From: Candidatus Zixiibacteriota bacterium
Lineage (GTDB): Bacteria > Zixibacteria > MSB-5A5 > GN15 > FEB-12
Length of the DNA stretch: 64,000 nucleotides
Assembly: GCA_020351995.1 (NCBI GenBank)
Contig: CP070674.1
Location: 1,413,307-1,477,306 of the forward strand
Direction of reading: 5' to 3'
Below the pieces are notes generated by a model. That model was not told where the DNA came from, searched no databases, and saw nothing but the letters and a program-made list of their open reading frames with translations. The position numbers and the translations under genes were made by a program. Shown here one piece after another: positions 14,927 through 58,549 of this stretch (position 1 is its first letter; every line of letters begins with the position of its first letter).

Positions 14927-14955
14927 AATATAGCTGGAGGCCCCCGTCTTGTCAA
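14927..14955 (-). promoter_or_regulatory. Sigma70-type promoter TTGACA-N17-TATATT for 13771..14844
   Basis: The minus strand reads cgTTGACAagacgggggcctccagcTATATTgc, with -35 at 14950..14955 and -10 at 14927..14932. Confidence 0.65.
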
Positions 14956-15021
14956 CGATATGCCCGGACAATCTGCCACAAATTGCGGCCTTTCGACACA
15001 AATTCGCCGGGCGTAAGCCAC

Positions 15022-15051
15022 AAAAAAACCCGCCCTGTAAAGGGCGGGTTT
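15022..15051 (-). terminator. Intrinsic terminator after 15091..16770
   Basis: The minus strand reads AAACCCGCCC-tttaca-GGGCGGGTTT followed by a T-run (the A-run at 15022..15028 on plus). Confidence 0.8.
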
Positions 15052-15090
15052 GTATTCTGATGCCTGAACGAATCAGACAACTCAGTTCGT

Positions 15091-16770
15091 TTACTGCATG
15101 ACGATATCAATGATAGCGCGAACGTCGAGCAGGTCGATACGCCCACTGTCATCGACATCCATGCACTCATCCATTCTCTCGCCCCAGAGCGTAGCTCTCG
15201 GGCCACCATTGAACAACCAGTCTATCATGAAGACTGCGTCTTCGATGTTGGTCACGCCGTCAAAGGTGACGTCGCCAACATACATCGTCAGGTTGAACAG
15301 GAACGTGAGCGTCTGATCGCCACCGGACTTGTAATCATAGTAGACCGGGCAGGGTCTATCCTGATAACCATCCGACGGAACCGGGCGCATACCACCGGCA
15401 CCAAGGAAGCGCATAATGAAACAATCCGTCACCAGCGCTGAATCATCTCCAAAATACTCTATTTGAGGATGATCAGCGGAGTAGGGCGGGATGTTGAACA
15501 CGCGGATGGTTCCCCAGTCAATGTCTTCAAAATCATCGCACCAGATACGAACGTCAAGTCTTCTCTCATTCTCAAGCGCTTTGAGTTTGGTCGTCTCCGG
15601 GAAGCAAGTAGCATAAGGGTCACAGCCTGAGACCGTAATCGTAAAGTCCTCGTCATCGCTCAACCCGGCAGTGTTGGTAGCGGTAACCGTAACCGCATGA
15701 ACACCAACCGCGGCGGTCCAGTCGATCACGCCGGTCACGGGCTCAATAGTCATGCCGGCGGGGCCAGCGATTGAAAAGGTCGGGGGAATCGGATAGCCGA
15801 CTTCGTCGAGTTCGACGTTATAAGTGAACGCCGCACCCTCGGTGGCTGTTTGGTCATCAATCGCGGTTATAACCGGAGCCTTATTGACCACGATCACGAA
15901 CTCCTCGGTTGCTTCGCTCGGGCAGTCGTTGGAAACTCTGACGGTTACGGGGTGGGTGCCTTTAACGCAGGTCCAGTTGATTAGGCCGCTCACAGGGTCA
16001 ATAGTCATGCCGGCCGGAGCGCCGGGGTCCAGCGCGAAAGTAATAGGAGCGTCACCGGTCGCGTCAACATCGTAGGTAAAAGCGTCGCCATCCAGGTACG
16101 GGCCGGCTGGAGCGGTCGTAGCAATCGCCACATCTTCACAGCCACCTGGCTCGAACTGAAACACGTACGGGCCATCCCAGGCGATCGAATCGCCAACGGC
16201 GGTCCAGAGCCAGAAGTTGCCCGGCTCCCAGTACGTGGTATCCAAAACCAGTTGGGCCTCCGCGGCGCCCGCGACACTGGCAACGTTCAAGGAATAAAGC
16301 CAGTTATTGAATCCCGCCGGCAAACCATCCCCTTCGTTAGACACACCGGCGATACCCAGACCACCAAGACCCTTGGTAAGGGCGGCAGCTCCCCAGTACA
16401 TGTCGAACCAGGAATAGCATCCTTGGAACGGGTAGCAGCCCGCCATGAACGCGCACTCCATTTCGAATGGGTAAGTGCAGTTCTTTCCCAGGGTCACTCC
16501 GCCAATGGTAACACCATCCGGAGAATCGAAGTAGAAGCCGTTCGAAATCGCGGTGCGGACCTCATTCACGCCATCACGATTTAGATTTAAGAAGTAAATT
16601 GGAATTACCAGATCACCACCAGCCAGGGGAATCTTTCCCTCGGCGGTCAGCCCTGTCACCTCGGCGAGATCTACATAGACCCTGCAGGAGTCTACTTGGG
16701 CGGTTGCCAGGCTGAATGAGGCAATTACCAAAACAGCAAGCAATGCTGTCACTTTGATGGGTGCTCTCAT
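15091..16770 (-). CDS. Secreted protein: family N-domain + two He_PIG/cadherin-like Ig domains + pre-dockerin module + dockerin-like module (subtype 2)
   Basis: 559 aa with signal peptide MRAPIKVTALLAVLVIASFSLATA. Ig-type repeats include FTYDVDATGDAPITFALDPGAPAGMTIDPVSGLINWT and FTYNVELDEVGYPIPPTFSIAGPAGMTIEPVTGVIDWT. C-terminus at 15094..15279 reads GDVTFDGVTNIEDAVFMIDWLFNGG...DVDDSGRIDLLDVRAIIDIV. Confidence 0.85.
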   Translation of the reverse strand: MRAPIKVTALLAVLVIASFSLATAQVDSCRVYVDLAEVTGLTAEGKIPLAGGDLVIPIYFLNLNRDGVNEVRTAISNGFYFDSPDGVTIGGVTLGKNCTYPFEMECAFMAGCYPFQGCYSWFDMYWGAAALTKGLGGLGIAGVSNEGDGLPAGFNNWLYSLNVASVAGAAEAQLVLDTTYWEPGNFWLWTAVGDSIAWDGPYVFQFEPGGCEDVAIATTAPAGPYLDGDAFTYDVDATGDAPITFALDPGAPAGMTIDPVSGLINWTCVKGTHPVTVRVSNDCPSEATEEFVIVVNKAPVITAIDDQTATEGAAFTYNVELDEVGYPIPPTFSIAGPAGMTIEPVTGVIDWTAAVGVHAVTVTATNTAGLSDDEDFTITVSGCDPYATCFPETTKLKALENERRLDVRIWCDDFEDIDWGTIRVFNIPPYSADHPQIEYFGDDSALVTDCFIMRFLGAGGMRPVPSDGYQDRPCPVYYDYKSGGDQTLTFLFNLTMYVGDVTFDGVTNIEDAVFMIDWLFNGGPRATLWGERMDECMDVDDSGRIDLLDVRAIIDIVMQ

Positions 16771-16812
16771 AATTTCTCCCTCAAATAGAGTTGAAAAGTT
16801 TATTGGGTTGTA
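16771..16812 (-). repeat. Conserved ATG-proximal leader block shared with 18345..18386
   Basis: By hand alignment, 38 of 42 nt are identical to the block upstream of the paralog. It contains the GAGGGAG RBS. Confidence 0.8.
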
Positions 16813-16961
16813 AACGGTAGTATTCTCCCAAAAATGCTGCGTCTAATCTTTTGCGACGATTTAGTGTGTCGTCACAAGTATTCCAAGCCACCCGGGTTAG
16901 CTAACACTTTTGATAAAGGCGGCGGAAGTAAACGGAACAGTAAGATTAATTCGTACACAAA

Positions 16962-16990
16962 AATATATCATCCGCAACCCATTTTGTCAA
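16962..16990 (-). promoter_or_regulatory. Sigma70-type promoter TTGACA-N17-TATATT for 15091..16770
   Basis: The minus strand reads gcaTTGACAaaatgggttgcggatgaTATATTttt. This implies a leader of about 185 nt. Confidence 0.65.
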
Positions 16991-17115
16991 TGCCAAAAAC
17001 GCGTCCTGACGGCAATTCTTTTCACAATACTTTATTAAAGTTTAAGGGATTAGCAAAAGCCGATATATTTTCTCCTATATTGCTGAGTTGCGGCGCAGGT
17101 GCCCCGGGACCACCG

Positions 17116-17148
17116 AAAAAAAACCCGCCCCTTTAGCAGAAGCGGGTT
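17116..17148 (-). terminator. Intrinsic terminator candidate after 17193..18344
   Basis: AACCCGC / GCGGGTT stem (17122..17128 and 17142..17148) followed on the minus strand by an 8-T run. Confidence 0.6.
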
Positions 17149-17192
17149 CTTATTCAGATTCCTGAAGCTATTCGATAGCTCAGACGCCTGTC

Positions 17193-18344
17193 TTAGTACA
17201 CATACTCGATCAGCGCCCGAATATCGAGCAGGTCAAAGCGACCACTCTGGTCGAAGTCCATGAATTCATCCATCCGATAACCGTCATAGGTGCAGGGCTC
17301 TCCGCCGTGGAAGAGGTAGTCAATCATGAAGACTACGTCATCGTTATTGACGGCGCCGTCAAAGTTCACATCGCCCTGGCTGATCATCTGAAGGAAGTCG
17401 CCATACAGAGTGTTTTCGCCACCAGCTAAATAGCTGTACGTGACCCAATACTCACCGGTATAGTCATCGGCAGGCAGCGGACGGAAGCCACCTGAGCCAA
17501 GGAAGCGCATCAGGTAGGCGTTGGTAACGACTGAGTCACCTTCGACCCAGGCCAGACCCTCATTAGTGTAGCACGGGATCTTGCCGAAGATCTTGACCGT
17601 GCCCAAGTCAACCGCATACGGATCATCTTCGCAATGAATCGAAACGTTCAGAACGCGGTCATTGTCATTGACACCGATCTCAAACGGGTTAGGCCAGCAA
17701 GTGGTAAACGGCCCTTCCGGACACGGGTCAAAACCACCCACGAATAGCGGGTCTGGAGGGGTCCAGCCCACATTAGCGCCAACACCGGTCCAGAGCCAGA
17801 AGTTGCCCGGTTCCCAGTAAGTAGTATCCATAACCAGCTGGGCCCCCAGCGGGCCGGAAACGCCCCAAGCCTTGATGGCGTAAATCCAGTCATCAAATCC
17901 CGGGGGAAGACCAGTACCCTTTTCCGCCAGGCCAGCAATACCCAGACCACCAAGACCCTTGGTAAGATCGGTGGCCGAGAAGTACATGTCAAACCAGGAA
18001 TAGCAATTGAACGGCTCGAATGGATAGCAGCCATTCATGATCGCGCACTCAAGGTCAACATTGTACACGCAGTTCTTGATAAGACTCAACGAATCAATGG
18101 TGACGCCGTCGGGCGATAAGAAGTAGTACCCGTTCGATACCGCGGTACGGAAATCCTCGGCGCCACTGGTGTTAACAAAGTGGATCGGAAATTCGAGGTC
18201 GGCGCCGACATCAGGGATATTGCCCTCTCCGTCAAGACCCGCAATCTCGCTATTAAGCACATAGACCTCTTGCCCCTGTGCGAAACCGAACGAGAAGAGT
18301 ACCATAACAGCAAGTAGTACTGTTGCTTTGAAGGGTGCTCTCAT
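17193..18344 (-). CDS. Secreted protein, short paralog of 15091..16770 (no Ig insert); dockerin-like module (subtype 2)
   Basis: 383 aa with signal peptide MRAPFKATVLLAVMVLFSFGFAQG. The N-domain is collinear with the paralog (LTKGLGGLGIAG, DTTYWEPGNFWLWT). C-terminus at 17196..17378 reads GDVNFDGAVNNDDVVFMIDYLFHGG...DFDQSGRFDLLDIRALIEYVY. Confidence 0.85.
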   Translation of the reverse strand: MRAPFKATVLLAVMVLFSFGFAQGQEVYVLNSEIAGLDGEGNIPDVGADLEFPIHFVNTSGAEDFRTAVSNGYYFLSPDGVTIDSLSLIKNCVYNVDLECAIMNGCYPFEPFNCYSWFDMYFSATDLTKGLGGLGIAGLAEKGTGLPPGFDDWIYAIKAWGVSGPLGAQLVMDTTYWEPGNFWLWTGVGANVGWTPPDPLFVGGFDPCPEGPFTTCWPNPFEIGVNDNDRVLNVSIHCEDDPYAVDLGTVKIFGKIPCYTNEGLAWVEGDSVVTNAYLMRFLGSGGFRPLPADDYTGEYWVTYSYLAGGENTLYGDFLQMISQGDVNFDGAVNNDDVVFMIDYLFHGGEPCTYDGYRMDEFMDFDQSGRFDLLDIRALIEYVY

Positions 18345-18386
18345 AGTTTCTCCCTCAATTAGAGTTGAAAAGTTTTATGGGTTGTA
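18345..18386 (-). repeat. Conserved ATG-proximal leader block shared with 16771..16812
   Basis: See 16771..16812. Confidence 0.8.
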
Positions 18387-18533
18387 GTTACAAACGAACA
18401 AATATGCTACGCCTTACTTTGGTGCTTAAAGGTTATTCTTCAGGCTCAAGCTAAAGTTCTCAACTTACTCAAACGCTATTTCAGCTAATAAGTAAGGAAT
18501 AAAGAAGTAAACTTCGTTTCGCTGTACGTCGGA

Positions 18534-18562
18534 AATATAACAATAATCGACCTGGCTGTCAA
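18534..18562 (-). promoter_or_regulatory. Sigma70-type promoter TTGACA-N17-TATATT for 17193..18344
   Basis: The minus strand reads ggTTGACAgccaggtcgattattgtTATATTtcc. This implies a leader of about 185 nt. Confidence 0.65.
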
Positions 18563-18663
18563 CCTATTTTTGGGCCTAAGACTCAGGCCCGTAGGCCATT
18601 TGTGCGCAATCTGGACAGGTTTTGAGGTGGCGAACAGACGTCTGGAAGAGTGCTCGAAAAGTA

Positions 18664-18686
18664 AACAGGATATATTCTCTCCTGTT
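18664..18686 (-). terminator. Hairpin overlapping the stop codon of the K+ channel gene (weak terminator candidate)
   Basis: AACAGGA-9 nt-TCCTGTT. On the minus strand it is followed by TACTTTTCG. Confidence 0.35.
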
Positions 18687-19710
18687 ACGTGGTCAGTTTC
18701 TTGCTGAGATCCTCAAGGCCCTGCATCTTGCCTATCAAGACCAATATGTCGTTCTCTTCGAGCACAGTTTCCGGGCCGGGGGCGATTACCATCTCCCGGT
18801 CTTCCTTCTTCACGCCGATTATGGTTATTCCAAACTCTTTTTTGAGGTTGGACTCAACGAGACTTTTTCCAGCCAACTCGCAGCCACCAGGGACGACCAT
18901 TTCCTCGATGGTCAGGTCGCTCTCACCCAGAGAGGTAGCGCTCATGAAATCGAGCACATTCGGCCTCAACGAGGCCATGGCCATCCGGATACCTCCGAGC
19001 ACGTGAGGTGTTACAACATGATTCGCTCCGGCCCGCATGAGCTTCTTGACACCTTCTTCGTAGTCCGCTCTCGCGATGATCTGAAGGTTTCTGTTCATGT
19101 CTCGCGCGGTCAGGGTCAGGTAAACGTTGTGGGCTTCGTCGGGCAACGTAGATATGAGCGTTCGGGCCAACTCGATCCCGGCTCGCCTGAGGGTATCATC
19201 GTCGGTGGCTTCACCCTGAATGAACAGAAAGCCGTCCCGGTGCAGTAATGAGACCGCCTCCTCGTCTTTCTCGATCACCACGAAATTGACCTTTTTCCTT
19301 TGAAACTCCATGGCCACCTGTCGCCCGACTCGGCCGAAGCCGGCAATTATGAAATGGTTCGAGAATTTTCGTATCTTATTCTCCATCTTTCTTCTCCCGA
19401 GTATTTCTTTGAATTGCCCTTCCAGGACGATCTGCCCGATTACAGTGGCCGTAAAGCCGGCCAGGGCCACCCCGAAGAGAATCAGGAATATGACAAATAC
19501 GCGCCCCTCAGGGTGAAGAGTTTTTACCTCCCCGAAGCCGACCGTTGACAGTGTTATGATCGTCATATAGAGGGCATCGAGCGGATCCATTCCTTCCAGC
19601 AATATGAAGCCGGTGCTCCCGAGCACTATCGCGATCATCAATCCCCCCAGAGCCAGGTTCAGCTTTTGGGTAGCCGTAAGGGGAATACCGGCATTTTGAT
19701 CAACAGCCAT
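18685..19710 (-). CDS. Two-TM potassium channel with cytoplasmic RCK (TrkA-N/TrkA-C) domains (MthK/Kch-like)
   Basis: 341 aa. Selectivity filter TLSTVGFGE. Rossmann motif IIAGFGRVGRQVA. C-terminal TrkA-C-like segment. Confidence 0.85.
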   Translation of the reverse strand: MAVDQNAGIPLTATQKLNLALGGLMIAIVLGSTGFILLEGMDPLDALYMTIITLSTVGFGEVKTLHPEGRVFVIFLILFGVALAGFTATVIGQIVLEGQFKEILGRRKMENKIRKFSNHFIIAGFGRVGRQVAMEFQRKKVNFVVIEKDEEAVSLLHRDGFLFIQGEATDDDTLRRAGIELARTLISTLPDEAHNVYLTLTARDMNRNLQIIARADYEEGVKKLMRAGANHVVTPHVLGGIRMAMASLRPNVLDFMSATSLGESDLTIEEMVVPGGCELAGKSLVESNLKKEFGITIIGVKKEDREMVIAPGPETVLEENDILVLIGKMQGLEDLSKKLTT

Positions 19711-19930
19711 AACGGCAATAACCTATTAAATTTTGACTGTCTTATCTACAAAAATATTGAGTGCCACAAATCACCGTATCAATCGGCGGCTTGACCCACC
19801 CTCGCACCTTCCGCCACCCGGTAGCTTGGTTGGCGCGAAAGGGGTTTTAGTTGACGAAGAGCATGCGGCCTATTAACAAAGGTAAGTTTAAGCCAGGGAG
19901 TCCAAACTGAGAAGTACCCATCGCTTTCTG

Positions 19931-20320
19931 TTGTATCATCTGCCGATGATTCTGTATGCGGGAATGATAATAGCAGTCTCTTCCATCCCGCATCTGAGAG
20001 GTCCGTCGATAGAGATACCAGGCGCCGACAAGATTGTCCACGGTATCGAATACGGAGTCTTCGCATTTCTGATATTCAGATCGTTTTTCAATTTCAGCGA
20101 CAACTTTTCGTTGAGAGGAACACTTGCCTGCGCGGCAACATTCATAGTGATCTTTGCCGTCTTCGACGAATTCTATCAGCGATCCGTCCCGGGACGTCAA
20201 TTTGATGTGAGCGATATGATCGCCGACATAATAGGCGCCCTGCTCGTGCTCTTGATTATAGGGATGCGCAAACGAAGAGCAAGACGGGCCGCGGGTCGGT
20301 CCGGTCAGACCGCGCTTTAG
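19931..20320 (+). CDS. VanZ-like family membrane protein
   Basis: About 125 aa with four hydrophobic segments. Motifs DKIVHGIEYGVFAFL and FDEFYQRSVPGRQFDVSDMIADIIGA are typical of VanZ. Start is either TTG 19931 or ATG 19946. Confidence 0.75.
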   Translation: MYHLPMILYAGMIIAVSSIPHLRGPSIEIPGADKIVHGIEYGVFAFLIFRSFFNFSDNFSLRGTLACAATFIVIFAVFDEFYQRSVPGRQFDVSDMIADIIGALLVLLIIGMRKRRARRAAGRSGQTAL

Positions 20321-20462
20321 CACTGAAGTCAGCGACTATTTGTTCCCGGGGCGAGCCAACGCCCGCACATATTTCCGCTTTTTTGTTTATTTTCTGTTGA
20401 CTTATACATATATTGCACGCAATCACATCGACTATTTGGGTTTATAATTCTTTAGGAACACC

Positions 20463-21467
20463 GTGCCACTCCAGATAAAAGTCGCGGGCAAAACTGATGT
20501 CGGCCTGGTCCGTACGGCTAACGAGGATTGCCTGCACCTGGATGAAAAAAACAGAATCTTCGCCGTCTGTGACGGCATGGGCGGGCATCAGGCCGGTGAG
20601 GTTGCCTCGATGATGTCGGCGGATATCATTGACATTATCTTCAATCATTTTCAGGATGAGATTCAGCGTGACGAACGACTTTCGTTTGGGCACGCATTGC
20701 CTCAGAGCGGCGAAATCCTGATCAAGGCCATACGAATCGCAAATCGGGCCATCTTCAATACCGCCGTGGAAAAACCCACCCTCCTGGGTATGGGCACCAC
20801 CGTTGTGGCGCTGGCCCTCGAGGGAGATGTGCTGTCGGTCGCCCACGTCGGGGACAGCCGCGCCTATAGGCTCAAGGAGCGGTCACTCGAGCCACTCACT
20901 GTAGATCACTCCTGGGTAGCCGAAATACAGCAGAATCAGAACCTGTCACATCAGGAGGCGGCCTCGGTGGTGGGAAAGAACGTCATAACCAGGGCCCTGG
21001 GCGTTCGCGAGAATGTCGAGGTCGATTACCGCCTGGTTAAAGTCGGGCCGGGCGACAAATTCATGATCTGCTCCGATGGCCTGTGCGGATTCGCTGATGA
21101 CGATGAGATATTCCATACCATGAACCGGGTTCGCGACGACAATGAGCATATCGTCACCGAACTGGTGCAGTTGGCCAATGATCGAGGTGGTGCCGATAAC
21201 GTCACGGTCGCTGTTCTGGAGGTGATCGACGTTGAGGCTTCCGACGCCCCGGAGATCGAGAGATTGACGATTCCGGCTGAGACAAACGAGATTCTCAGTG
21301 TCGAAGACGGGTGGCTGGAGAAATTGAACGCGTTTATCGCCCGCAGAAACGAAACACCTGAGATTGTGCCGCCCGAGAAACCGGTAAATAAGGCCACGGT
21401 AATCGTTATTTTCGTAATCTTCATTATCATCGCCGCTGTAATCATCTACTTCTCCGCCGTTCGTTGA
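20463..21467 (+). CDS. PP2C-family Ser/Thr protein phosphatase with extreme C-terminal TM anchor
   Basis: 334 aa. Motifs: TDVGLVRTANEDC, VCDGMGGHQAGEVAS, VGDSRAY, ICSDGL and GGADNVTV. The last about 25 aa are hydrophobic (ATVIVIFVIFIIIAAVIIYFSAV). GTG start. Confidence 0.9.
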   Translation: MPLQIKVAGKTDVGLVRTANEDCLHLDEKNRIFAVCDGMGGHQAGEVASMMSADIIDIIFNHFQDEIQRDERLSFGHALPQSGEILIKAIRIANRAIFNTAVEKPTLLGMGTTVVALALEGDVLSVAHVGDSRAYRLKERSLEPLTVDHSWVAEIQQNQNLSHQEAASVVGKNVITRALGVRENVEVDYRLVKVGPGDKFMICSDGLCGFADDDEIFHTMNRVRDDNEHIVTELVQLANDRGGADNVTVAVLEVIDVEASDAPEIERLTIPAETNEILSVEDGWLEKLNAFIARRNETPEIVPPEKPVNKATVIVIFVIFIIIAAVIIYFSAVR

Positions 21468-21519
21468 CATCCCGATCATATCACTGTCTCCTCACCGCAT
21501 TCTCATTCGGAAAATTCCC

Positions 21520-21549
21520 TTGACTTTTGAGTCTGATACGCCCTATTTG
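21520..21549 (+). promoter_or_regulatory. Promoter candidate for tRNA-Arg (TTGACT-N18-TATTTG)
   Basis: A -35-like TTGACT lies at 21520..21525 and an AT-rich -10-like hexamer ends about 12 nt before the mature tRNA 5' end. Confidence 0.35.
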
Positions 21550-21561
21550 GACTCGAAAAAT

Positions 21562-21635
<74 letters not shown>

Positions 21636-21674
21636 TTTTCTTATTGCAGATTTTCCAGATTTGCCGGCCCGGCG

Positions 21675-22568: not shown

Positions 22569-22920
22569 GATCAACCACCAGCAGCGGAAGATTCGACTCT
22601 AAAGTCACCGGACTCAATCCCGCTCTCCCGTAGATATCCGCCTTGTAGCGGCTCTCTAACATGGACAGAATTATCTTACCATTGCCTATGCTGTCCCCAA
22701 TGTCGGATGTCCGACAGTATTCAACGGGACTAATCCATCCCGGCTGCCATGACTTGACAGGGGCGGCGCAAGACGCTTTATAACAAACAATTACGTTCAG
22801 GCCTCGATGGCTGACGCCGGGACGACAATCTAAAGGTTTGGCCCCTGAAGCCGATATTTTCTTAAAGGACCGGCAGTGCCGGTTCCGCCCTACCATTTAT
22901 TAGAAAGGACTATCGGGGTT

Positions 22921-23352
22921 ATGTACCACATTACAGGATACCATTGGAAAAACGACCGCGGCCTCAGTCTACTCGAAGTGCTGGTGGCAATGATTGTGCT
23001 CGCGGTCGGTATCTTAGGACTGGCACCTATGGTTGTGTTATCTATCGAAGGAAACAGTATATCGCGCGACTTCATCGTCGCCACCGAACTGGCTAAGGAG
23101 CAGCTTGAGCTATATGAAGCGCAGGATGTATTGATGAAGGCCAAGCCGGCACCCGCGCTTCCCACTGATAGTCTCAGTGATACCTTGATTTACTTACCCG
23201 ACGTTGACGGCTATTCGCGCACCGTTACCATTCAGGCCGCTGAAGGAATCAATCCGCCGAATCTTGTGAAAGTGACAATCGACATATCCTGGACAGACAA
23301 GTTAGGCAAGGTCCGCGCGATAAGACACTCAACACTGATGATGAATAACTGA
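22921..23352 (+). CDS. Type IV pilus minor pilin, PilV-like
   Basis: Prepilin N-terminus MYHITGYHWKNDRG/LSLLEVLVAMIVLAVGILGLAPM, the class III signal with Glu at +5. The ORF track starts at GTG 22876; I prefer ATG 22921. Confidence 0.75.
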   Translation: MYHITGYHWKNDRGLSLLEVLVAMIVLAVGILGLAPMVVLSIEGNSISRDFIVATELAKEQLELYEAQDVLMKAKPAPALPTDSLSDTLIYLPDVDGYSRTVTIQAAEGINPPNLVKVTIDISWTDKLGKVRAIRHSTLMMNN

Positions 23353-23368
23353 GGGGGGCAGGTTGAAA

Positions 23369-23986
23369 ATGAATACAAAAGAGAAAAAGCTCATTGGCGG
23401 ACACGCCGGTTTCACTCTTATAGAGCTTCTTATAGCGGCTCTCATTACGGCGATTCTGGCCGTTGCGGCGTTTCAGTTCTATGTCACCATGCAGCAGCAG
23501 GTCACTTCTCAAAAAGAGATTTCGGACATGCAGCAGATAAGCCGCTCGTGTCTCCAGGAAATCAGCAAAACTCTCCGCATGGCGGGCTACATGCTTCCCG
23601 AGGGCCACCCTGCCTTTGACACGATAAGCTCTGCCGAAATATGGGTATACATCGGGACCGGTGACCTGAGTGCCCTGGACCCGGTCGACACGACCAAATA
23701 CTACCTTCAGGAGTTTGATGCTGCTCAGTATGACAAGGTTCCGGGTCTCGCTGCTGGCATGAAACTATACAATCTGATTAAGGAGTCCGAAGAGCCCGGC
23801 TGGACACAGCCCGAAATCTTCGCCGACTACATAACGTCGCTATCCTTTCTGCCTATTGGTTCGTCAGAAATAGCAGTCACCATAGAGGTGCAAACCTCGA
23901 AAAAGGATGAAACCTTCAACGCTAACAACGGCTTTCGAACCTTTGTCAACACCGAGCGCGTTAACATGCGCAACCTGACGATATGA
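23369..23986 (+). CDS. Type IV pilus minor pilin, PilW-like
   Basis: MNTKEKKLIGGHAG/FTLIELLIAALITAILAVAAFQFY prepilin cleavage/methylation motif. The gene order V-W-X matches the classical fimU-pilVWXY1E order. Confidence 0.75.
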   Translation: MNTKEKKLIGGHAGFTLIELLIAALITAILAVAAFQFYVTMQQQVTSQKEISDMQQISRSCLQEISKTLRMAGYMLPEGHPAFDTISSAEIWVYIGTGDLSALDPVDTTKYYLQEFDAAQYDKVPGLAAGMKLYNLIKESEEPGWTQPEIFADYITSLSFLPIGSSEIAVTIEVQTSKKDETFNANNGFRTFVNTERVNMRNLTI

Positions 23987-25188
23987 GGAGGATCAAGTTG
24001 AAGAAGCTGATAAATGACAATAGTGGCGGGGCGCTTGTTATCGTCCTCGGTTTAATGCTTCTGCTGACAATAGCGGCCATACTGGCGGTGCATACCGCCC
24101 AGACCGATATAGACCTGTCTTTCAATCAGGTAGACTACGACCACGCCTTCTACATCGCCGACGCCGGCCTGAAAAAGGCCTTCAATGAACTGAACAAGGA
24201 CAACTTCTGGTCAGCCGGCTACCTTGAAATGGCCTTTGAGGACGGCGCGTATACCGTCATCACGGAACGGGATATCCCCGTCACCGATTCGGCCTTCGAC
24301 CCGATCACCGACAGGGTGACCCTGCGATCAACGGCCAGCTATCGGGAGTCTCAGGCTAACCTGAGAGCAGTGGTGGTACCGGAATTATTCTACCCCTTCA
24401 AATACGCCGTGTATGGAGAAGATGGGATTCTCATGGACAACAATTCGGAAACCGATTCCTACAACTCCGATGACGGGGCTTATGTTGATTCGCTCGCCGG
24501 GACAGAAGGCGATGTCGCATCTAATGGAACTATAGTCCTGGAGAACTCAGCGTTGGTAAACGGCGACGCCAGTAGTTCCCTGACCGGTGGTGTCAGCGTT
24601 TGTGCCACGTGTGGCGTCACGGAAGATGTTAGCGATGCAGCCGAGCCTTTCGAAATTCCGCCGATACCGGATTCGGTGTTCACTTACTATGAATCAAACA
24701 ATGACAACATTACCGGTGTTGATCCGGTAACCAGCATGATTTACCCCGGGCCGGATCTGATCCTGGCCATCGCCGACACGATAACCCTGACAACCGGCGT
24801 TTACTACTTCAACGACATAACGATGAACTCAAATTCGGTGATCATTCTGGATCCGACAGATCCAGACGTTGAGGTAAAGATATATATTCGCGGAACACTC
24901 ACCCTGGACAATAACACCACCATAAACCCGAATAATGACCCGACGGATTGCCTGATCTTCTCCGACGGCCAGATAGTTACAATCGGCAACGATACTGAGA
25001 TTTATGCCGCGTTCTACGGACCGGATGCCGATGTTGATCTGGGTAACAGCTGCGATTGGTACGGTTCGATAATAGCTGAATCGGTGAGCATGGTCAATAC
25101 GGGAAGCCTTCATTATGACGAAGCGCTGGCACCGATTCCGATCACTACCACCGGCAATATGCTCATGATATCCTGGATCGAGGATTAG
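23983..25188 (+). CDS. PilX-N-domain pilus assembly protein with C-terminal beta-helix-like domain
   Basis: 401 aa. N-terminus GGALVIVLGLMLLLTIAAILAVHTAQTDIDLS is PilX_N-like, with no Glu5. ATGA overlap with the PilW-like gene. C-terminal block FYGPDADVDLGNSCDWYGSIIAESVSMVNTGSLHYDEAL. Confidence 0.7.
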   Translation: MRRIKLKKLINDNSGGALVIVLGLMLLLTIAAILAVHTAQTDIDLSFNQVDYDHAFYIADAGLKKAFNELNKDNFWSAGYLEMAFEDGAYTVITERDIPVTDSAFDPITDRVTLRSTASYRESQANLRAVVVPELFYPFKYAVYGEDGILMDNNSETDSYNSDDGAYVDSLAGTEGDVASNGTIVLENSALVNGDASSSLTGGVSVCATCGVTEDVSDAAEPFEIPPIPDSVFTYYESNNDNITGVDPVTSMIYPGPDLILAIADTITLTTGVYYFNDITMNSNSVIILDPTDPDVEVKIYIRGTLTLDNNTTINPNNDPTDCLIFSDGQIVTIGNDTEIYAAFYGPDADVDLGNSCDWYGSIIAESVSMVNTGSLHYDEALAPIPITTTGNMLMISWIED

Positions 25189-25420
25189 CACTTTTGGCCC
25201 GAATCGCCTCACAGGCACATGGGAACTATAGCAGTATGTGAGGCACGACCGACGGCCCGGGCCCGATGAAAAGGTCGTCGATATTGAGAGTCAATTGGAC
25301 TCGAACGCTTTTAGACAGGTAACATGCGAGGGGCCTTTCTTCCTGGCGGGGGCTGACCAGCCTGCATGACATCAAGCGTGTTACAACAAGATAACGCTGT
25401 AATACGAGGAGTGTGTAGCC

Positions 25421-26587
25421 GTGGGACAACTACACATCAGTCAGCAAGGCGGGGCATTGCTCATCGCTCTGGGCATCATGTTACTGCTCACTATCGCAGC
25501 CCTCATAGCCGTGGATACCGCTCAAACCGATATGGAGCTATCCTTTAACCAGGTTCACTCCAGCCAGTCATTCTATGTCGCCCAGGCCGGGCTTATCCGG
25601 GCTTTCAACGAGATTAACAATGACAATGACTGGACGGCGGGCTTTCTGAACGAGCCGTATGAGGGGGGCTATTACACCGTCATCGTGGTTGACAGCACGG
25701 TCGAGGGTGCTCTGGTAGACACTGTCATTCTTCGCGCCACCGGTAAGATCGGCGACGCCAACACTAATCTCGAGGCACTGGTCGTTCCCGAATACTGGCG
25801 ACCATTTCAGTATGCTATGTTCGGAGACAGCGCCATAGTGATGGACAATAACACCTGTACCGACTCCTATAACTCGGACTCAGGCGACTATGCCTCCACC
25901 ATGGATCTAATCAATGGTGATGTCGCCTCTAACGGCGACCTGGAGTTCATCCATACCGCCGTTGTCGGCGGCGACGCCTCGAGCGCGACCGAAGGAGGCA
26001 TCTTTGTCTGTGCCACCTGCACCGTTTATGGAGATACCACCAGCAAGATCGATCCTCTCCCCGTTCCACCGGTACCGGATTCCGTTTACGATTGGGCACG
26101 GTCGGTCAACGCCGCTCCCGGCGGGCTTTCGGATCCATCCATGTACGATGGCGTCACTCATGCTTTAAACATGAATCTCAACTCAACGCTGACTCTATCC
26201 GGAGGCGTCTATTATTTCTCCGAAATCACAATAGAGAACAATTCCCGGCTGCAGGTTGCGCCTGGCGAAAGCGTCGAAATCTACGTGACCGGCGATATAT
26301 CTATCGGGCAAAACGCGTATGTCAATACTGACGGCGATCCGGCCGACATGGTGATTTTCTCCGATGGCGACTCCCTGCAGCTAGGCATGAGCACGGTGGT
26401 GCACGCCGCCTTTTATGGGCCTTCGGCAATTATGACAATGGAGAACAATTGTCAGTACTATGGATCAATCGTAGCCTACTCCGGCAGCGCCGTAAATGCC
26501 GCCTGTATACACTACGATCGGGCACTCCGGGAAGTGGAAGGCGGAAAAACCGGCGTGATGCATATGATCGCCTGGAAAGAATTATAA
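25421..26587 (+). CDS. Second PilX-N-domain protein (paralog of 23983..25188)
   Basis: 388 aa, GTG start. N-terminus GGALLIALGIMLLLTIAALIAVDTAQTDMELSFNQV. Collinear with its paralog, including the VCATC and FYGPSA...YGSIVA...IHYDRAL blocks. Confidence 0.7.
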   Translation: MGQLHISQQGGALLIALGIMLLLTIAALIAVDTAQTDMELSFNQVHSSQSFYVAQAGLIRAFNEINNDNDWTAGFLNEPYEGGYYTVIVVDSTVEGALVDTVILRATGKIGDANTNLEALVVPEYWRPFQYAMFGDSAIVMDNNTCTDSYNSDSGDYASTMDLINGDVASNGDLEFIHTAVVGGDASSATEGGIFVCATCTVYGDTTSKIDPLPVPPVPDSVYDWARSVNAAPGGLSDPSMYDGVTHALNMNLNSTLTLSGGVYYFSEITIENNSRLQVAPGESVEIYVTGDISIGQNAYVNTDGDPADMVIFSDGDSLQLGMSTVVHAAFYGPSAIMTMENNCQYYGSIVAYSGSAVNAACIHYDRALREVEGGKTGVMHMIAWKEL

Positions 26588-26596
26588 CAAAACAGG

Positions 26597-26630
26597 AGGC
26601 CGAGGCGACAATCCACTGCCGTCTCGGCCT
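26597..26630. terminator. Hairpin between convergent genes (PilX-like 2 and the giant gene)
   Basis: AGGCCGAG...CTCGGCCT 8-bp stem. On the minus strand it is followed by CCTGTTTTG; there is no T-run on the plus strand. Confidence 0.45.
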
Positions 26631-26659
26631 GCTATAATCAACTCTAATATCAAAGAAAT

Positions 26660-29600
26660 CTATGGCACGTTGATTGTGTAACTCTGGTAGTCGGTGCCAT
26701 AGTCATTGGTCGCCTCAATCACGACATCGTAATCGCCCGAAGAACCGGGCGTAAACTCCACTTCGCCGGTCACAGGGTCTATGGTCATCCCGCTCGGGTA
26801 GGTTGTCAATGCGTAAGTTGGGGCGGGATACCCGCTGGCGTCAGCGTCGTACGTGTACAGTACACCGACGGACCCGGTCGTTATCGGCGTGGACGTAAAC
26901 GACGGCGCAATTCCAACTACCGTAATAGCAAATGACTGAGTGTCGCTGCCGTAAGAGTTGATAGCAACAACCGTGACGTCATAATCACCAACATCAGCCG
27001 GGGTCCACTCGATCACGCCGGTATTGGCATCGACTGTCATACCCGACGGCTTTGTCGTCAGCGCGTAAGTCGGGGCCGGATAGCCATCAGCTTCAACATC
27101 ATAGCTGTAAAGTTGACCGTAGGTACCCGTTGTGACCGCCGTGGAAGTGATTGTCGGGACCTCGACGATGGTCAACACGAAGTCATCAGTATCGGTGCCG
27201 TAAGCGTTGGTAGCTTCAACGACTACATCGAAATCACCCACTCCCGTCGGGGTCCAGGCAATTTCCCCGGTGATGGGATCAATCGTCATTCCCGTCGGGT
27301 AAGTCGTCAGCGAATAGGTTGGAGCAGGGTAACCCGTGGCATCGGCATCTTCAGTGAAACCTACGCTAAGAAGCTGTACCTGATCAGGGATATCAGCCAG
27401 GAAAGGCGCCACGCCCGATACACTGATAGTGAACGGCTGCGTATCGGTGCCATAAATATTGGTAGCTTCAACAACCACATTATAATCGCCTATATCCGAC
27501 GGTGTCCACTCTACCACACCCGTATTGGCGTCAATTGTCATACCTGTTGGGTATGTTGTCAGTGAGTAAGTTGCCGCCGGGTAGCCTCCGGCCTCGGCGT
27601 CATAGCTATACAATTGGCCATAAGTACCTGTCGTCACCGGCGTTGACGTAAACGCCGGGGCAACACCTGTCACCGAGATCGTGAAGCTCTGGGGTGTCGT
27701 TCCAGCGGAGTTGGTGGCTTCAATGACAACGTCGACATTCCCGGTATCAGACGGCGTCCAGCGAACCAAACCCGTACCACTATTGATAGTCATTCCCGCG
27801 GGGTACGTAGTAAGAGAATATGTCGGCGTCGGCTCACCGGTAGCGTCGGCGTTGTACTCATAGAGTACATTATAGGTACCGGTGGTTATCGGAGTCGAGG
27901 TGAAGGTCGGCGGTATTCCTACAACGGTAAGGATGAAACTCTGGGTGTCGGCGCCATTAACATTAGCCGCTTCAACCTCCACATCGTAATCCCCGATACT
28001 GCCCGGGGTCCAAGTAATTACACCAGTGGTGGCGTTAATCTTCATGGCCGAAGGAGACGTTATCAAATCGAACGTAGGTGCCGGATTTCCCGTAGCCTCG
28101 ACATCATAAGTGTATGGTTGGTCAATCGTGGCAGTCGTAACCGGTGTTGATGTTATCACGGCTCCAGCCGGGGCCGCCGATACACTGATCGTGAAATTCT
28201 GGTATGCGGTTCCATAAGTGTTAGTGGCCTCGATTTCGACATCGTAGTCACCCTCCGAATCCGGGGTCCATTCCACAAGACCGGTTCCGCTATTAATCGT
28301 CATTCCGGTCGGATAGGTGGTTAGCGAATACGTCGGGGTCGGATAACCATCGGCATCCGCGTCATAGGAATATAGTACACCGGTTACTCCGGTAGTGACC
28401 GGCGTCGAGGTAAAGCTCGGCGCGACACCGCTCACGGATATGGTAAAGCTCTGATAATCCGTGCCGTAAATATTGGTAGCTTCCACCACAACATCGGCAT
28501 CGCCGGTGGCGTCTGGTGTCCATTCAATGACACCGGTGTTGCCATCGATGGTCATCCCGGTCGGGTACGTTGTGAGAGCGAATGTCGCCGCAGGGTATCC
28601 GCTGGCATTGGCATCATAGCTGTAGAGCTGACCGTAAGTCGCCGTGGTAACAGGAGTTGACGTAAACGCTGGAGCCACACCGGTGACACCGATAGTATAG
28701 CTCTGCTGTGTACTTCCGGCGGCATTGATCGCTTCGATAACGACATCGACATCACCCGTATCTGCGGGCGTCCAGCGTACAACACCGGTTCCACTATTGA
28801 TTGTCATACCGGCTGGCCCATCGAGCAGGGCGTAGGTAGGCGTGGGATCGCCCGTGGCGTCGGCATCATACTCGTACTGTACACCGTAGGTCGCCGTAAG
28901 AATCGGCGTGGAGGTAAAGCTTGGAGCAACTCCCGACACCGTCACCACGAAACTCTGGGTGTCGGCGCCATTGACGTTAAGAGCCTCCACTTCAACATCG
29001 AAGTCACCGACAGACCCCGGTGTCCAGCTGATAAGCCCGGTCGTTGAGTTGATGTTCATGCCCGACGGCGAGGTAATGAGGTCAAACGTCGGGGCCGGGT
29101 AGCCGGTAGCCTCAACGTCGTAAGCATACGCCTGCCCCACCGTCACGCTCGTGACAGGTGTAGAGGTAATCACCGGTGGTTCCGGGGTTCCGGAAACCGA
29201 TATGGTGTAATTCTGAATATCAAGACCGTAGGCGTTACTGGCTTCGATAGTAACATCAACATCACCCTCTTCGGTCGGTGTCCACTGCACCACACCGGTC
29301 GCCGGATCAATCGTCATACCGGTCGGGAATTCTGTAAGGGCGAACGTCGCCGCCGGGTAACCGTCGGTCTCGGCATCATAACTATATAGCACTCCAACCA
29401 CACCGGTCGTCGGAGGACTTGATATAAAAGTCGGGGCAATGCCGGCCACCGAAATAGTGAAATTCTGAATGTCCGTTCCATAAGCGTTTGCGGCCTCGAC
29501 GATGACATTATGATCGCCATCATCATCCGGTGTCCACTGAATAAGGCCGCTCGCCGGGTCAATCGTCATTCCGGTGGGGAAGGTTGTCAGCGAGAACGTA

Positions 29601-32182
29601 GCCGCCGGGTAACCATCGGCGTCGGCATCATAACTATATAATTGTTGATATGTTCCGGTGGTGATCGGGGTCGAGGTAAAGGTCGGCGCGATTCCGGCTA
29701 CCGATATGGTGAAGCTCTGCGGATCGGTACCCGAACTGTTACTGGCTTCAACCACAACATCGTAATCCCCTACGTCACCAGGCGTCCACTGAATCAGCCC
29801 CGTAGCCGGGTCGATGGTCATCCCGGTAGGGTAAGTCGTGAGCGCGAAGGTTGGGGCCGGATTGCCGCTTGCTTCAACATCGTATGTGTATAATTGATTG
29901 TACGTCCCGGTGAGAATAGGAGTCGAGGTGATCACTGGCGCCTCGGCAGGCAGGACCGAGATTGTGAAATTCTGCGGCGTCGTGCCGGCCGAGTTAGTGG
30001 CCTCCAGAACAACGTCGTAGTCACCGTCCGAAGGCGGAGTCCACTGGATAAGACCGGTAATAGGATCGACAGTCATTCCGGCCGGAAAGGTAACCAGAGA
30101 ATAACTGGGCACCGGATACCCGTCAGCATCGGCGTCATAAACATATAGTTCACCGGAAACACCTGTCAGGGGTGGGCTTGTGGTAAACGAAGGGGCGATA
30201 CCGCTGACCGAGATGGTATAGGGCTGATAATCATCGCCCCACGTATTCGAAGCGTTAATGGTAACATCGAAATCGCCAACGTCATCCGGCGTCCATTCTA
30301 CGAGGCCGGTAACCGGATCGATAGTCATTCCCGGCGGTGCCAAAGTAAGTGAGAAATCCGGATCTGGGTCGCCATCGGCGTTGGCGTCATAGCTATACAG
30401 CACACCGTAAGTAGCCGTCGTTACTGGAGTGGACGTGAACATGGGCGCGATTCCGCCGAGGGGACAGTCGATTGGAGCGGGGCCGCCGCGGTGCAGGTAG
30501 TCGATCAAATAGTCAACATCGAGAATATCTACCTGGTCATTGTCATCGGCATCGGCCTCCTGCTCGCAAATCGGTGCCGAGCCGTCTCGAAAGAGATAGT
30601 CGACTATAAAGTCCAGGTCAAGAAGATCGAATTGACCGTTATGGTCGGCATCGCCACGCAATTCACAGCACTCCAGCCATTCAAGCTCGGTGTTGACGTA
30701 TAAATACATTCGCTCACCCACAATTGAGTCAACCCGCACATAGATGCCCGAATAACCATAGTAACTGTCACTGCTCGGATAAGTCTGCGGACCAAACTCG
30801 CTCTGTCCGGGGACATCGGACGAAAAAAGCGCCCCTTTTCTGGTCTCCCAGGGATACCACCATTGGGCGCTGTCGGTCAAACGGCCTTCAGGGTTATAAG
30901 TATAATCCTTGAGCGGGTTGTAACCGGCATCCTCGACGCACACGGCATAGTGGGGATCTAAGGGCGTTCCCTGGTTGAGTGATATAATCTCTTGGGGGTC
31001 GACCAGCGAATCATCAATATGTGTTATCAATAGTCCGCGGTCCAGCACGTCATAACCGAACGTGAGATTGGGATAGAACCATGAGCAAAAATCGGAGTCG
31101 AATTTATCGAACTTACCTGCTGACTGCGGATTTCGGTACTCGAGTAAGAAGTACTCCAGGTCGCTGTCATTGATGGGTATTCTATATAATGAAGAATCTG
31201 CGGTTGTCTCAACATTGTATATGACGAGATCATGATACTCGCCCTCAAGAATGATCGGCTCGATATACCCCAGCCGCACCTTGTTCCAGCCGCAGTAATG
31301 ATTGGCGCTTACCCCGCCCAGCGACAAATAACCGTAGCCATAGTAACCCATTGGATCCCAATCAACAAGCGGATGGTCGTTCTGGTCGTTCGCAATATTA
31401 TAGGTCGATGTCACCAGTTTGCCGTCGTAGTCGTACAGGTCTGCCAGGCCGATGTTATGGCCAACTTCGTGAACAAACACGCGGATACCGCTCCGTACAG
31501 TCTCTCCGCTGAACTGCACCGGGTATATGGGGTCCCGCAGTGGTTTGAGCTCCGGACAGGTGTTCCAGGCGTCCACCTGGACCCGGTCATAGCGGCCCCA
31601 GCCCTGATCACTGGCAGCGGCATAGGACCAGATATCGAGAGGATCCTGGGAATCTTCTTCTCCGACACCGGAACGGATGAAACAGATCGCGTCGGCCTTC
31701 CTATCCTCGTTGCCATCATATAGAGAATAGTCAATGTACGGATCTAATATCTCAAACAGCGAACTGAATGGAAAATACTTTCCAAATGTGGGGCCGGCGT
31801 TGTACCAATCAAATACATCGCCGGTAAGCTTCACCTGGCCATACGAAACCTCATGGATGTAATCGGCCAGAGAACCCTCGGGAAGAACGTCGCGGGAGAA
31901 GAGCAAAGTATCGAAAGCCTGCCATGGTAACGTCCCGGGCCGATCTCCCCATTCCACCAGAATAGCCAGCAGCCTGAGACTGTCTCCCTTAAAGCTTGCC
32001 GCTGAGAGGAGGTCAGCTTGTGTCCCGGCATATCCGTGCCAGGGAAGTCTGCCCCATTGAACCTGGACCTGTGATTCGGGCATATCGAAGACGAGAAAAT
32101 AATCGGGGTCGGAAGCCAGCGCGGGCACGCCAAGGAGTAAGACAAGGCTGCCAATTAGAAGTTTTCTGGGCATTTTCTTCAC
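26660..32182 (-). CDS. Giant secreted protein: M6/InhA-like metalloprotease domain + internal dockerin-like module + 15 tandem He_PIG/cadherin-like Ig repeats
   Basis: 1840 aa with signal peptide MKKMPRKLLIGSLVLLLGVPALA. Zinc site FVHEVGHNIGLADLYDYDG, with HEVGH at 31457..31471. Dockerin-like CCELRGDADHNGQFDLLDLDFIVDYLFRDGSAPICEQEADADDNDQVDILDVDYLIDYLHRGGPAPIDC at 30455..30673. Repeats span 26663..30454. Confidence 0.9.
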   Translation of the reverse strand: MKKMPRKLLIGSLVLLLGVPALASDPDYFLVFDMPESQVQVQWGRLPWHGYAGTQADLLSAASFKGDSLRLLAILVEWGDRPGTLPWQAFDTLLFSRDVLPEGSLADYIHEVSYGQVKLTGDVFDWYNAGPTFGKYFPFSSLFEILDPYIDYSLYDGNEDRKADAICFIRSGVGEEDSQDPLDIWSYAAASDQGWGRYDRVQVDAWNTCPELKPLRDPIYPVQFSGETVRSGIRVFVHEVGHNIGLADLYDYDGKLVTSTYNIANDQNDHPLVDWDPMGYYGYGYLSLGGVSANHYCGWNKVRLGYIEPIILEGEYHDLVIYNVETTADSSLYRIPINDSDLEYFLLEYRNPQSAGKFDKFDSDFCSWFYPNLTFGYDVLDRGLLITHIDDSLVDPQEIISLNQGTPLDPHYAVCVEDAGYNPLKDYTYNPEGRLTDSAQWWYPWETRKGALFSSDVPGQSEFGPQTYPSSDSYYGYSGIYVRVDSIVGERMYLYVNTELEWLECCELRGDADHNGQFDLLDLDFIVDYLFRDGSAPICEQEADADDNDQVDILDVDYLIDYLHRGGPAPIDCPLGGIAPMFTSTPVTTATYGVLYSYDANADGDPDPDFSLTLAPPGMTIDPVTGLVEWTPDDVGDFDVTINASNTWGDDYQPYTISVSGIAPSFTTSPPLTGVSGELYVYDADADGYPVPSYSLVTFPAGMTVDPITGLIQWTPPSDGDYDVVLEATNSAGTTPQNFTISVLPAEAPVITSTPILTGTYNQLYTYDVEASGNPAPTFALTTYPTGMTIDPATGLIQWTPGDVGDYDVVVEASNSSGTDPQSFTISVAGIAPTFTSTPITTGTYQQLYSYDADADGYPAATFSLTTFPTGMTIDPASGLIQWTPDDDGDHNVIVEAANAYGTDIQNFTISVAGIAPTFISSPPTTGVVGVLYSYDAETDGYPAATFALTEFPTGMTIDPATGVVQWTPTEEGDVDVTIEASNAYGLDIQNYTISVSGTPEPPVITSTPVTSVTVGQAYAYDVEATGYPAPTFDLITSPSGMNINSTTGLISWTPGSVGDFDVEVEALNVNGADTQSFVVTVSGVAPSFTSTPILTATYGVQYEYDADATGDPTPTYALLDGPAGMTINSGTGVVRWTPADTGDVDVVIEAINAAGSTQQSYTIGVTGVAPAFTSTPVTTATYGQLYSYDANASGYPAATFALTTYPTGMTIDGNTGVIEWTPDATGDADVVVEATNIYGTDYQSFTISVSGVAPSFTSTPVTTGVTGVLYSYDADADGYPTPTYSLTTYPTGMTINSGTGLVEWTPDSEGDYDVEIEATNTYGTAYQNFTISVSAAPAGAVITSTPVTTATIDQPYTYDVEATGNPAPTFDLITSPSAMKINATTGVITWTPGSIGDYDVEVEAANVNGADTQSFILTVVGIPPTFTSTPITTGTYNVLYEYNADATGEPTPTYSLTTYPAGMTINSGTGLVRWTPSDTGNVDVVIEATNSAGTTPQSFTISVTGVAPAFTSTPVTTGTYGQLYSYDAEAGGYPAATYSLTTYPTGMTIDANTGVVEWTPSDIGDYNVVVEATNIYGTDTQPFTISVSGVAPFLADIPDQVQLLSVGFTEDADATGYPAPTYSLTTYPTGMTIDPITGEIAWTPTGVGDFDVVVEATNAYGTDTDDFVLTIVEVPTITSTAVTTGTYGQLYSYDVEADGYPAPTYALTTKPSGMTVDANTGVIEWTPADVGDYDVTVVAINSYGSDTQSFAITVVGIAPSFTSTPITTGSVGVLYTYDADASGYPAPTYALTTYPSGMTIDPVTGEVEFTPGSSGDYDVVIEATNDYGTDYQSYTINVP
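26663..30454 (-). repeat. 15 tandem coding repeats of 246-258 nt (82-86 aa Ig-like units)
   Basis: Repeat boundaries counted by hand. Consensus: G(V/I)AP.FTSTP.TT.TYG.LYSYDADA.GYPAPTY.LTTYP.GMTID..TG...WTP...GDYDVV.EATN.YGTD.Q.FTISV. Confidence 0.9.
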
Positions 32183-32318
32183 TGTTGTTGTCCTGTTCTT
32201 AACTGGTGTGTACGTAAGTGTCAGAGTTCTTAAGTAATCGGAGTAAATCTCTCACCCGGACGGGGGTCCTGGGGCGAATCGGGTAAAGTGCTACTCGACA
32301 CGGTGATTAACTGGCCTA

Positions 32319-32347
32319 AATATAGGCTACAAAGTCTTTTTTGTCAA
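32319..32347 (-). promoter_or_regulatory. Sigma70-type promoter TTGACA-N17-TATATT for the giant gene
   Basis: The minus strand reads gtgTTGACAaaaaagactttgtagccTATATTtagg. This implies a leader of about 130 nt. Confidence 0.65.
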
Positions 32348-58521: not shown

Positions 58522-58549
58522 CGTTACATCCTATGTATTCTGCCGATGC

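Follow-up and report, generated by a model that had tools for sequence, protein, structure and literature searches.

Our analysis concerns a 64-kb stretch of DNA (the window) from a metagenome-assembled genome of a Candidatus Zixiibacteriota bacterium (locus tags JSV52_, 3.6-Mb contig), and the promoter-like sequence TTGACA-N17-TATATT, of which an exact search finds precisely four copies in the window. All four are on the minus strand, lie between genes and point at the next minus-strand gene: P1 (14927-14955) faces gene 13771-14856, P2 (16962-16990) faces 15091-16770, P3 (18534-18562) faces 17193-18344, and P4 (32319-32347) faces 26660-32182, a giant gene of 1840 codons. Each site agrees with the bacterial consensus at six of six positions of the -35 hexamer and five of six of the -10 hexamer, across a 17-bp spacer; P2 and P3 carry in addition a TG at -15/-14, and P3 has an A-tract upstream of its -35 box. 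The -10 box stands 70, 191, 189 and 136 nt from the listed start codon (P1 to P4, respectively), which gives leaders of about 63-184 nt if the start site lies some 7 nt after the -10 box. A chance origin of the four copies is rejected, since 100 dinucleotide-preserving shuffles of the window gave no match; the expected number of matches is 0.005 from base composition and 0.005-0.009 per strand from the observed counts of both hexamers. A repeated or mobile element is likewise disfavoured, as outside the hexamers the regions upstream of 13771-14856 and of the giant gene align neither with each other nor with the other two. The secreted-protein gene 4719-7103 has a near-consensus site 88 nt upstream, at 4602-4630 on the plus strand (TTGACA-N17-TATACT); another, at 63918-63946 on the minus strand (TTGACA-N17-CATATT), lies 104 nt before gene 62338-63813, whose product has FG-GAP repeats and a C-terminal tail of the type IX secretion system (T9SS). 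An earlier, sequence-only reading of the window had reported the four exact copies and these two near-copies; the number, strand and coordinates of the former are reproduced by our search, the latter are both found, and its upstream distance of 65-185 nt agrees with the leader lengths above, with correct orientation at all four sites. Its chance expectation of 0.008 is close to the values recomputed here.

The three adjacent genes downstream of P1, P2 and P3 are tandem paralogs by alignment. Gene 17193-18344 encodes a secreted protein of 383 residues with a signal peptide, an N-terminal domain and a C-terminal dockerin, which scores 25.8 bits against the Pfam Dockerin_1 profile (cutoff 22.9 bits) and matches dockerins in a profile search of the PDB (E = 1e-4). 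Sequence profiles pick up the dockerin only; the best Foldseek matches of the N-terminal domain (residues ~30-175; homologs P0002-P0011) are cohesin modules, with E = 1e-5 to 1e-3 and a template modelling score on the target of 0.5-0.66, from a model whose mean predicted local distance difference test score is 55 overall and about 75-90 in the domain. As the model is of low confidence overall, we assign a cohesin-like fold to this domain tentatively; if a cohesin-like domain and a dockerin do share one secreted protein, then self-assembly or scaffolding would be possible. Its paralog 15091-16770 (minus strand, 559 residues) has an inserted pair of He_PIG domains (Pfam, E = 8.5e-19) and a C-terminus that is dockerin-like by alignment to its paralogs. 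The more distant paralog 13771-14856 (minus strand, 361 residues) has a signal peptide and a dockerin recognized both by Pfam (24.6 bits) and by alignment; the ATG at 14844, preceded by the ribosome-binding site GGGAGG, is likely to be its true start.

The giant gene 26660-32182 on the minus strand encodes a secreted protein in which Pfam recognizes an N-terminal domain similar to the M6 (immune inhibitor A) peptidases followed by 15 He_PIG repeats, and in which a Pfam scan finds no dockerin. Its first 400 residues have homologs in Zixibacteria that carry the annotation of an M6-family metalloprotease-like dockerin protein and form a large family, most members of which end in a dockerin. Relatives of the giant protein are 570-690 residues long and end in a dockerin or in thrombospondin-type repeats, with 273 matches at E <= 1e-10 in Zixibacteria metagenomes. 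A search with the N-terminal 400 residues returned the M6-like dockerin paralogs and not the 1757-residue ortholog; these paralogs were then used as an independent gene family for the comparison of promoters.

Each of the three tandem genes is followed on the minus strand by an intrinsic terminator, taken as a G+C-rich hairpin with a directly adjoining T-run: at 17116-17148 for 17193-18344 (ending in T8), at 15019-15051 for 15091-16770 (an 11-bp stem, hairpin 15051-15026, then T7), and at 13712-13743 for 13771-14856 (a 9-bp stem, hairpin 13743-13720, then T8). The giant gene is followed by a weaker terminator-like hairpin (26586-26630, minus strand), with an 8-bp stem (26630-26597) and an 18-nt loop, then CCTGTTTTGTT; only four consecutive T follow the stem, and the hairpin sits between two convergent genes. 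The gene cluster that meets the giant gene here (22876-26587, plus strand) is type IV pilin-like, with N_methyl, PilX_N and DUF7305 domains and a putative adhesive domain, and its convergence with an M6-like secreted-protein gene is kept in three genomes (the window, L003:1562-5227 and L012:11749-16760, where L numbers denote loci analysed outside the window).

Within the window the exact motif is associated with one class of gene. It precedes four of the seven transcription units with a dockerin, He_PIG domains or a T9SS tail, versus none of the 32 others (Fisher p = 4e-4); with one mismatch allowed, the counts become six of seven versus two of 32 (p = 6e-5). The secreted-protein gene 7274-9616 is without a good promoter match. 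This gene and 4719-7103, both on the plus strand, are paralogs whose secreted products have DUF7948 and SBBP beta-propeller domains and end in a half-dockerin-like motif (D..YLVNY.F..GP.P..C) as do the M6-like dockerin proteins; of the two, only 4719-7103 is preceded by a near-consensus promoter. Outside the class, a gene for an HtrA protease has TTGACT-N17-TATTAT upstream, and TTGACA-N17-TATTAT at 32781-32809 (minus strand) ends 18 nt before the mature tRNA-Leu at 32675-32762. Since tRNA-Leu has the same -35 box and spacing, the signal is general rather than specific to secreted proteins, and we read the motif as the general consensus of the housekeeping sigma factor, not as an exoproteome signal. 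A consensus promoter is not present at every tRNA gene: tRNA-Arg (21561-21636) has the moderate match TTGACT-N18-TATTTG at 21520-21549 on the plus strand.

These observations bear on how the sequence-only reading had described the locus. It had called all four downstream genes members of a dockerin family, which Pfam bears out for 13771-14856 and 17193-18344 and alignment alone for 15091-16770, and which does not hold for the giant gene. The terminators it listed, a hairpin with T7-T8 after three genes and a weaker hairpin with a short T-run after the giant gene, are all confirmed. It had not found the pattern in front of the housekeeping genes it inspected; the exact motif precedes none of the 32 other units, and near-consensus forms stand before tRNA-Leu and the HtrA gene. 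It had also proposed that the exoproteome is wired as strong, independent single-gene units; the layout of terminator, promoter, leader, gene and terminator fits independent single-gene units, and the proposal is for the most part right. It goes too far on specificity to secreted proteins and on the independence of the four copies, and the strength of the promoters is a prediction.

Counterpart promoters are present at corresponding positions in three other Zixibacteria genomes. In GCA_975963145.1, where the syntenic locus L003 carries orthologs of about 60% protein identity, the exact motif is found at all three positions: L003:9776 (counterpart of P3), L003:11477 (of P2) and L003:14331 (of P1, at the end of the contig). 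In the more distant bin295 (CP070756.1), where the orthologs have 41-42% protein identity, a second counterpart of P3 is again exact (L005:9782, 190 nt before the ortholog), and the spacer part GTCGATnAT is kept along with the hexamers in both counterparts of P3; other copies in bin295 have TTGACA-N17-TATACT or TTGACT-N17-TATACT upstream. A second positional counterpart of P1, L006:11253, reads TTGACT-N17-TATACT, and TTGACA-N17-TATTAT stands before a paralog at another locus of the window's genome (L002) and before the counterpart of that paralog in GCA_975963145.1 (L004). Near-exact copies precede paralogs and M6-like dockerin genes across four genomes (L002:6071, L004:8421, L005:11226, L009:4555, L010:484, L011:7770, L011:9843, L012:7827 and L012:9837). 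The last five are homologs of P4 with spacers similar to its own; the M6-like dockerin genes that show this promoter pattern, with leaders of about 130 nt, are found in the window's genome (L010) and, as two genes each, in bin295 (L011) and in a fourth genome (L012). At L009:4739-5692, a gene with TTGACT-N17-TATATT 155 nt upstream encodes protein P0011, in which the N-terminal domain of the 17193-18344 family is fused to a T9SS C-terminal sorting domain and not to a dockerin. With this replacement of the dockerin, the cohesin-like/dockerin family swaps its anchoring or export tag.

A profile of nucleotide identity along the ortholog pairs of 17193-18344, whose proteins are about 42-60% identical, sets the promoter apart from its surroundings. 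Identity is 0.45-0.56 in the 100 nt upstream of the promoter, rises to 0.83-0.90 over the 29-nt promoter itself, falls to 0.55-0.75 in the 5' part of the leader, reaches 0.92-0.93 in the last 75 nt of the leader, and then declines through the first 75 nt of the coding sequence (0.76-0.88) to 0.49-0.64 in the remainder; the coding sequences of these orthologs are 0.51-0.65 identical. Between the paralogs 17193-18344 and 15091-16770, the 29-nt promoter is 0.55 identical, a value accounted for by the 12 invariant bases of the hexamers. Because the hexamers and their spacing are kept across genomes while the flanking DNA and the coding sequences diverge, the comparison supports the view that these sites behave as real promoters. 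A protein-based scan for further loci of the family gave one weak locus (L007) among metagenome contigs and two loci, from one genome, among genome contigs. In more distant relatives (L008:55-2006 and the contig carrying P0009) family genes stand head to tail with gaps of 8-28 nt and without promoters of their own, in apparent operons.

The second peak in this profile lies within the leader. The leader of 17193-18344 (18345-18533, minus strand) extends for about 182 nt from the predicted start site, and its last 75 nt (18345-18419) form a conserved element to which the last 78 nt (16771-16848) of the 15091-16770 leader (16771-16961, minus strand) are homologous. The short leader of 13771-14856 (14857-14926) and the ~130-nt leader of the giant gene (32183-32318), both on the minus strand, complete the set. 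An nhmmer profile of the segment finds six copies only among the DNA examined, all in the cohesin-like/dockerin family: the two in the window together with L003:9926-10000, L003:11619-11698, L005:9928-10000 and L006:9929-9999. Identity between the 17193 and 15091 paralog groups is 66-72%, and what is kept is primary sequence, in the order CGCAGCAT(A/T)TTTG ... TACAACCCAnnAAACTTTTCAACTC ... TTGAGGGAGAAACT-ATG, the first block lying some 60 nt before the start codon and being near-invariant in all six leaders. An exact-pattern scan of metagenome contigs for the leader motif AAACNTTTCAACTC-N3-6-TTGAGGGAG returned no match. The possibility of a structured RNA is disfavoured on three grounds: the leaders match no Rfam family (the best E-value in a leader region is 1.1, and only two tRNAs in the window reach the gathering threshold); their single-sequence folds are not more stable than those of shuffled sequence (z = -0.66 and -1.22); and the consensus fold is limited to a weak hairpin of 8 bp that spans the ribosome-binding site and is backed by a single compensatory change. 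Inspection of the leaders by eye revealed neither a conserved upstream reading frame nor CsrA-like paired GGA sites. We put forward, as a tentative and rather doubtful suggestion, that in the cohesin-like/dockerin family the leader, ~190 nt long, ends in a new cis-acting regulatory element of ~75 nt, to which the conserved first ~75 nt of the coding sequence, encoding the signal peptide, may also belong. Such an element could control translation through the hairpin over the ribosome-binding site or through binding of a protein or small RNA, and could couple translation to the secretion of surface proteins.

The composition of the promoters was compiled over 21 sites. Their -10 box reads T-A-T, then A (17 sites), T (3) or C (1), then T (13), C (4) or A (4), then T; the base after the box is T in 13 of the 21, and a TG at -15/-14 occurs in roughly half of them (T at -15 in 10, G at -14 in 12). 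Spacing in the sites from related genomes is 16-17 bp, and in one family a GTA conserved 5-8 nt after the -10 box is suggestive, and no more than that, of the start position. A candidate for the factor that reads these sites is encoded in the window itself: the gene at 41638-42492 (minus strand) specifies a sigma-70-family factor of 284 residues with regions 1.2, 2, 3 and 4, canonical in regions 2-4, and without region 1.1. Over its full length it can be aligned with structures of SigA/RpoD (E = 7e-83), and it retains the -35-reading helix TRERVRQI of region 4.2. It may be the primary sigma factor, being short as in Bacteroidetes, and yet the promoters of the window are canonical and not of the Bacteroidetes type.

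Taken together, the four sites are in our judgement likely to be canonical -35/-10 promoters read by a housekeeping sigma-70-family factor, each driving a single-gene unit, and they are almost certainly real promoters of an ordinary kind. The housekeeping polymerase would bind the near-perfect boxes at their optimal spacing, initiate some 7 nt past the -10 box, transcribe a leader of 60-190 nt and one signal-peptide gene, and stop at the intrinsic terminator. Promoter and leader would have been copied along with the genes as the families duplicated and then held by purifying selection. In well-studied bacteria near-perfect hexamers with 17-bp spacing make promoters strong; these features, with the extended -10 TG at 16962 and 18534, suggest that the four genes are probably among the most highly, and constitutively, transcribed of the cell. 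What we infer from the sequence is where transcription starts, that the promoters are strong, and that the leader acts in mRNA stability or translation.

Density of the motif was assessed in a set of 213 kb from four Zixibacteria genomes, of which 12% is intergenic. TTGACA-N16-18-TAnnnT occurs there 22 times between genes and nine times inside them, a density about 18-fold greater between genes, and 17 of about 24 intergenic matches precede secreted-protein genes; as the extra loci were picked for encoding these families, and their promoters are in many cases related by descent, the counts outside the window are biased and not independent, and the window is the only unbiased sample for specificity. 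This bias is one of several considerations that weigh against our interpretation of strong, housekeeping promoters. The intergenic DNA of the two closest genomes is fairly conserved overall, with the 5' part of the leader at 0.75, so that the comparison with bin295 alone cleanly separates the promoter from its surroundings. Both the start sites and the promoter strength are predictions. A perfect consensus promoter can suffer slow promoter escape in well-studied bacteria, and so need not be among the strongest. The status of the 284-residue factor as primary sigma factor is that of a candidate.

The repetition of the motif could owe most to gene duplication, one ancestral promoter having been copied together with its gene, in which case it would reflect common descent and not the design of an exoproteome. 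The three adjacent genes are paralogous, the leaders of 15091-16770 and 17193-18344 share a homologous 3' segment, and spacers are similar among the M6-like family's promoters, all as duplication would predict; however, between paralogs the spacer and flanks are near-random and yet all 12 hexamer positions are identical, the leaders of 13771-14856 and the giant gene show no relation either to one another or to the remaining two, and the unrelated genes 4719-7103, 62338-63813 and tRNA-Leu also have near-consensus promoters. Descent explains the origin of some copies, and selection is still needed for their staying exact; as a full account of the pattern we consider duplication unlikely. The conserved 3' part of the leader raises a different prospect, namely that the true start lies within it, at a second, proximal promoter around CGCAGCAT(A/T)TTTG, leaving TTGACA-N17-TATATT upstream in a secondary or regulatory role. 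The near-invariance of that block in six leaders and its loose resemblance to the Bacteroidetes -7 box TAnnTTTG lend this some appeal, the Zixibacteria being, like the Bacteroidetes, members of the Fibrobacteres-Chlorobi-Bacteroidetes (FCB) group. Against it, the Bacteroidetes-type composite TTTG-N19-21-TAnnTTTG occurs zero times in the 213 kb, the block is without the leading T of the box and without a TTTG at -33, the 284-residue sigma factor keeps the canonical residues of region 4.2, and the upstream promoter is itself conserved, even in families whose leaders do not have the block. We regard a proximal start as very improbable.

Least probable of all, and in our estimation scarcely credible, is a dedicated regulon in which an alternative sigma factor or a specific regulator reads the motif and sets secretion and surface proteins apart from housekeeping transcription. 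The hexamers are those of the classic housekeeping consensus, whereas in promoters of the extracytoplasmic function (ECF) type the -35 box contains AAC and the -10 box resembles CGT; tRNA-Leu shares the -35 box and spacing; and paralogs use TATATT, TATTAT, TATACT and TATAAT interchangeably. A regulon would nonetheless accommodate the restriction of the exact TATATT variant in the window to secreted-protein genes, the spacer parts conserved within families (for example GTCGATnAT), which could hold an operator, and the presence of an ECF sigma factor gene at 59491-60057. That gene lies within 56383-60057 (minus strand), where genes for secreted DUF4097 (toast-rack), bactofilin-like and LiaF-like proteins follow it, and from its gene content the cluster looks like an envelope-stress operon; HtrA-like PDZ proteases are encoded nearby at 54809-56182 and 42580-44082.

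Probable recognition by a housekeeping sigma factor places the sites alongside the sigma-70/SigA promoters of Escherichia coli and Bacillus subtilis (TTGACA-N17-TATAAT, with an optional TGn), with which they share an identical -35 box, 17-bp spacing, A2 and T6 of the -10 box, and an intergenic position upstream of a Shine-Dalgarno sequence and start codon; they differ at position 5 of the -10 box, where T or C takes the place of A in most sites, and the sigma factor encoded in the window is short (284 residues) and has no region 1.1. The RpoD motif of Chlorobaculum tepidum, defined by differential RNA sequencing, has the second box TA[ATC][ATC][AT]T (bioRxiv 10.1101/172254), which TATATT, TATTAT and TATACT all fit, and this organism belongs to the same superphylum, the FCB group. 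Its first box is reported as no more than TTG, the spacing is looser, and the motif is compared by its authors with the promoters of Bacteroidetes (bioRxiv 10.1101/172254); the Zixibacteria sites, in contrast, have the full TTGACA and a strict spacing of 16-17 bp. Bacteroidetes themselves, a related phylum that shares T9SS-tail secreted proteins with the Zixibacteria, have a different promoter motif (TTTG at -33, TAnnTTTG at -7), and their mRNAs are described as largely without Shine-Dalgarno sequences (PMC6847099); the genes described here, unlike these, have strong ones (GGGAGG, GAGGGAG).

The arrangement of the units also has precedents. The genes for abundant envelope and secreted proteins, such as ompA of E. 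coli, aprE of B. subtilis and S-layer genes, have strong promoters and long, stabilizing leaders. The units in the window resemble them, by analogy, in that a single gene for a signal-peptide protein stands behind a strong-type promoter and a leader of ~60-190 nt and ahead of an intrinsic terminator. They differ in that their leaders have no conserved stabilizing 5' hairpin, and conserve instead the primary sequence beside the ribosome-binding site.

Our findings reveal no new mechanism; they describe a textbook bacterial promoter in the Zixibacteria, and the 75-nt leader segment is the most novel part of the locus. A search of the literature at our disposal found no report on Zixibacteria promoters, and we know of no cultured representative of the phylum, so the sites provide a well-supported working definition of a strong Zixibacteria promoter: TTGACA, 16-17 bp, TAT(A/T)(T/C/A)T, in many cases together with an extended -10 TG. 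This definition could be used for annotating transcription units in metagenome-assembled genomes, for guesses at the surface proteins that the cell makes in large amounts, in this case the candidate cohesin-like/dockerin and M6-like protease proteins, and as a source of promoters and leaders with which to express genes in other hosts. The sequences also set the Zixibacteria apart from the related Bacteroidetes, in that they point to the use of canonical promoters and Shine-Dalgarno sequences in this phylum.

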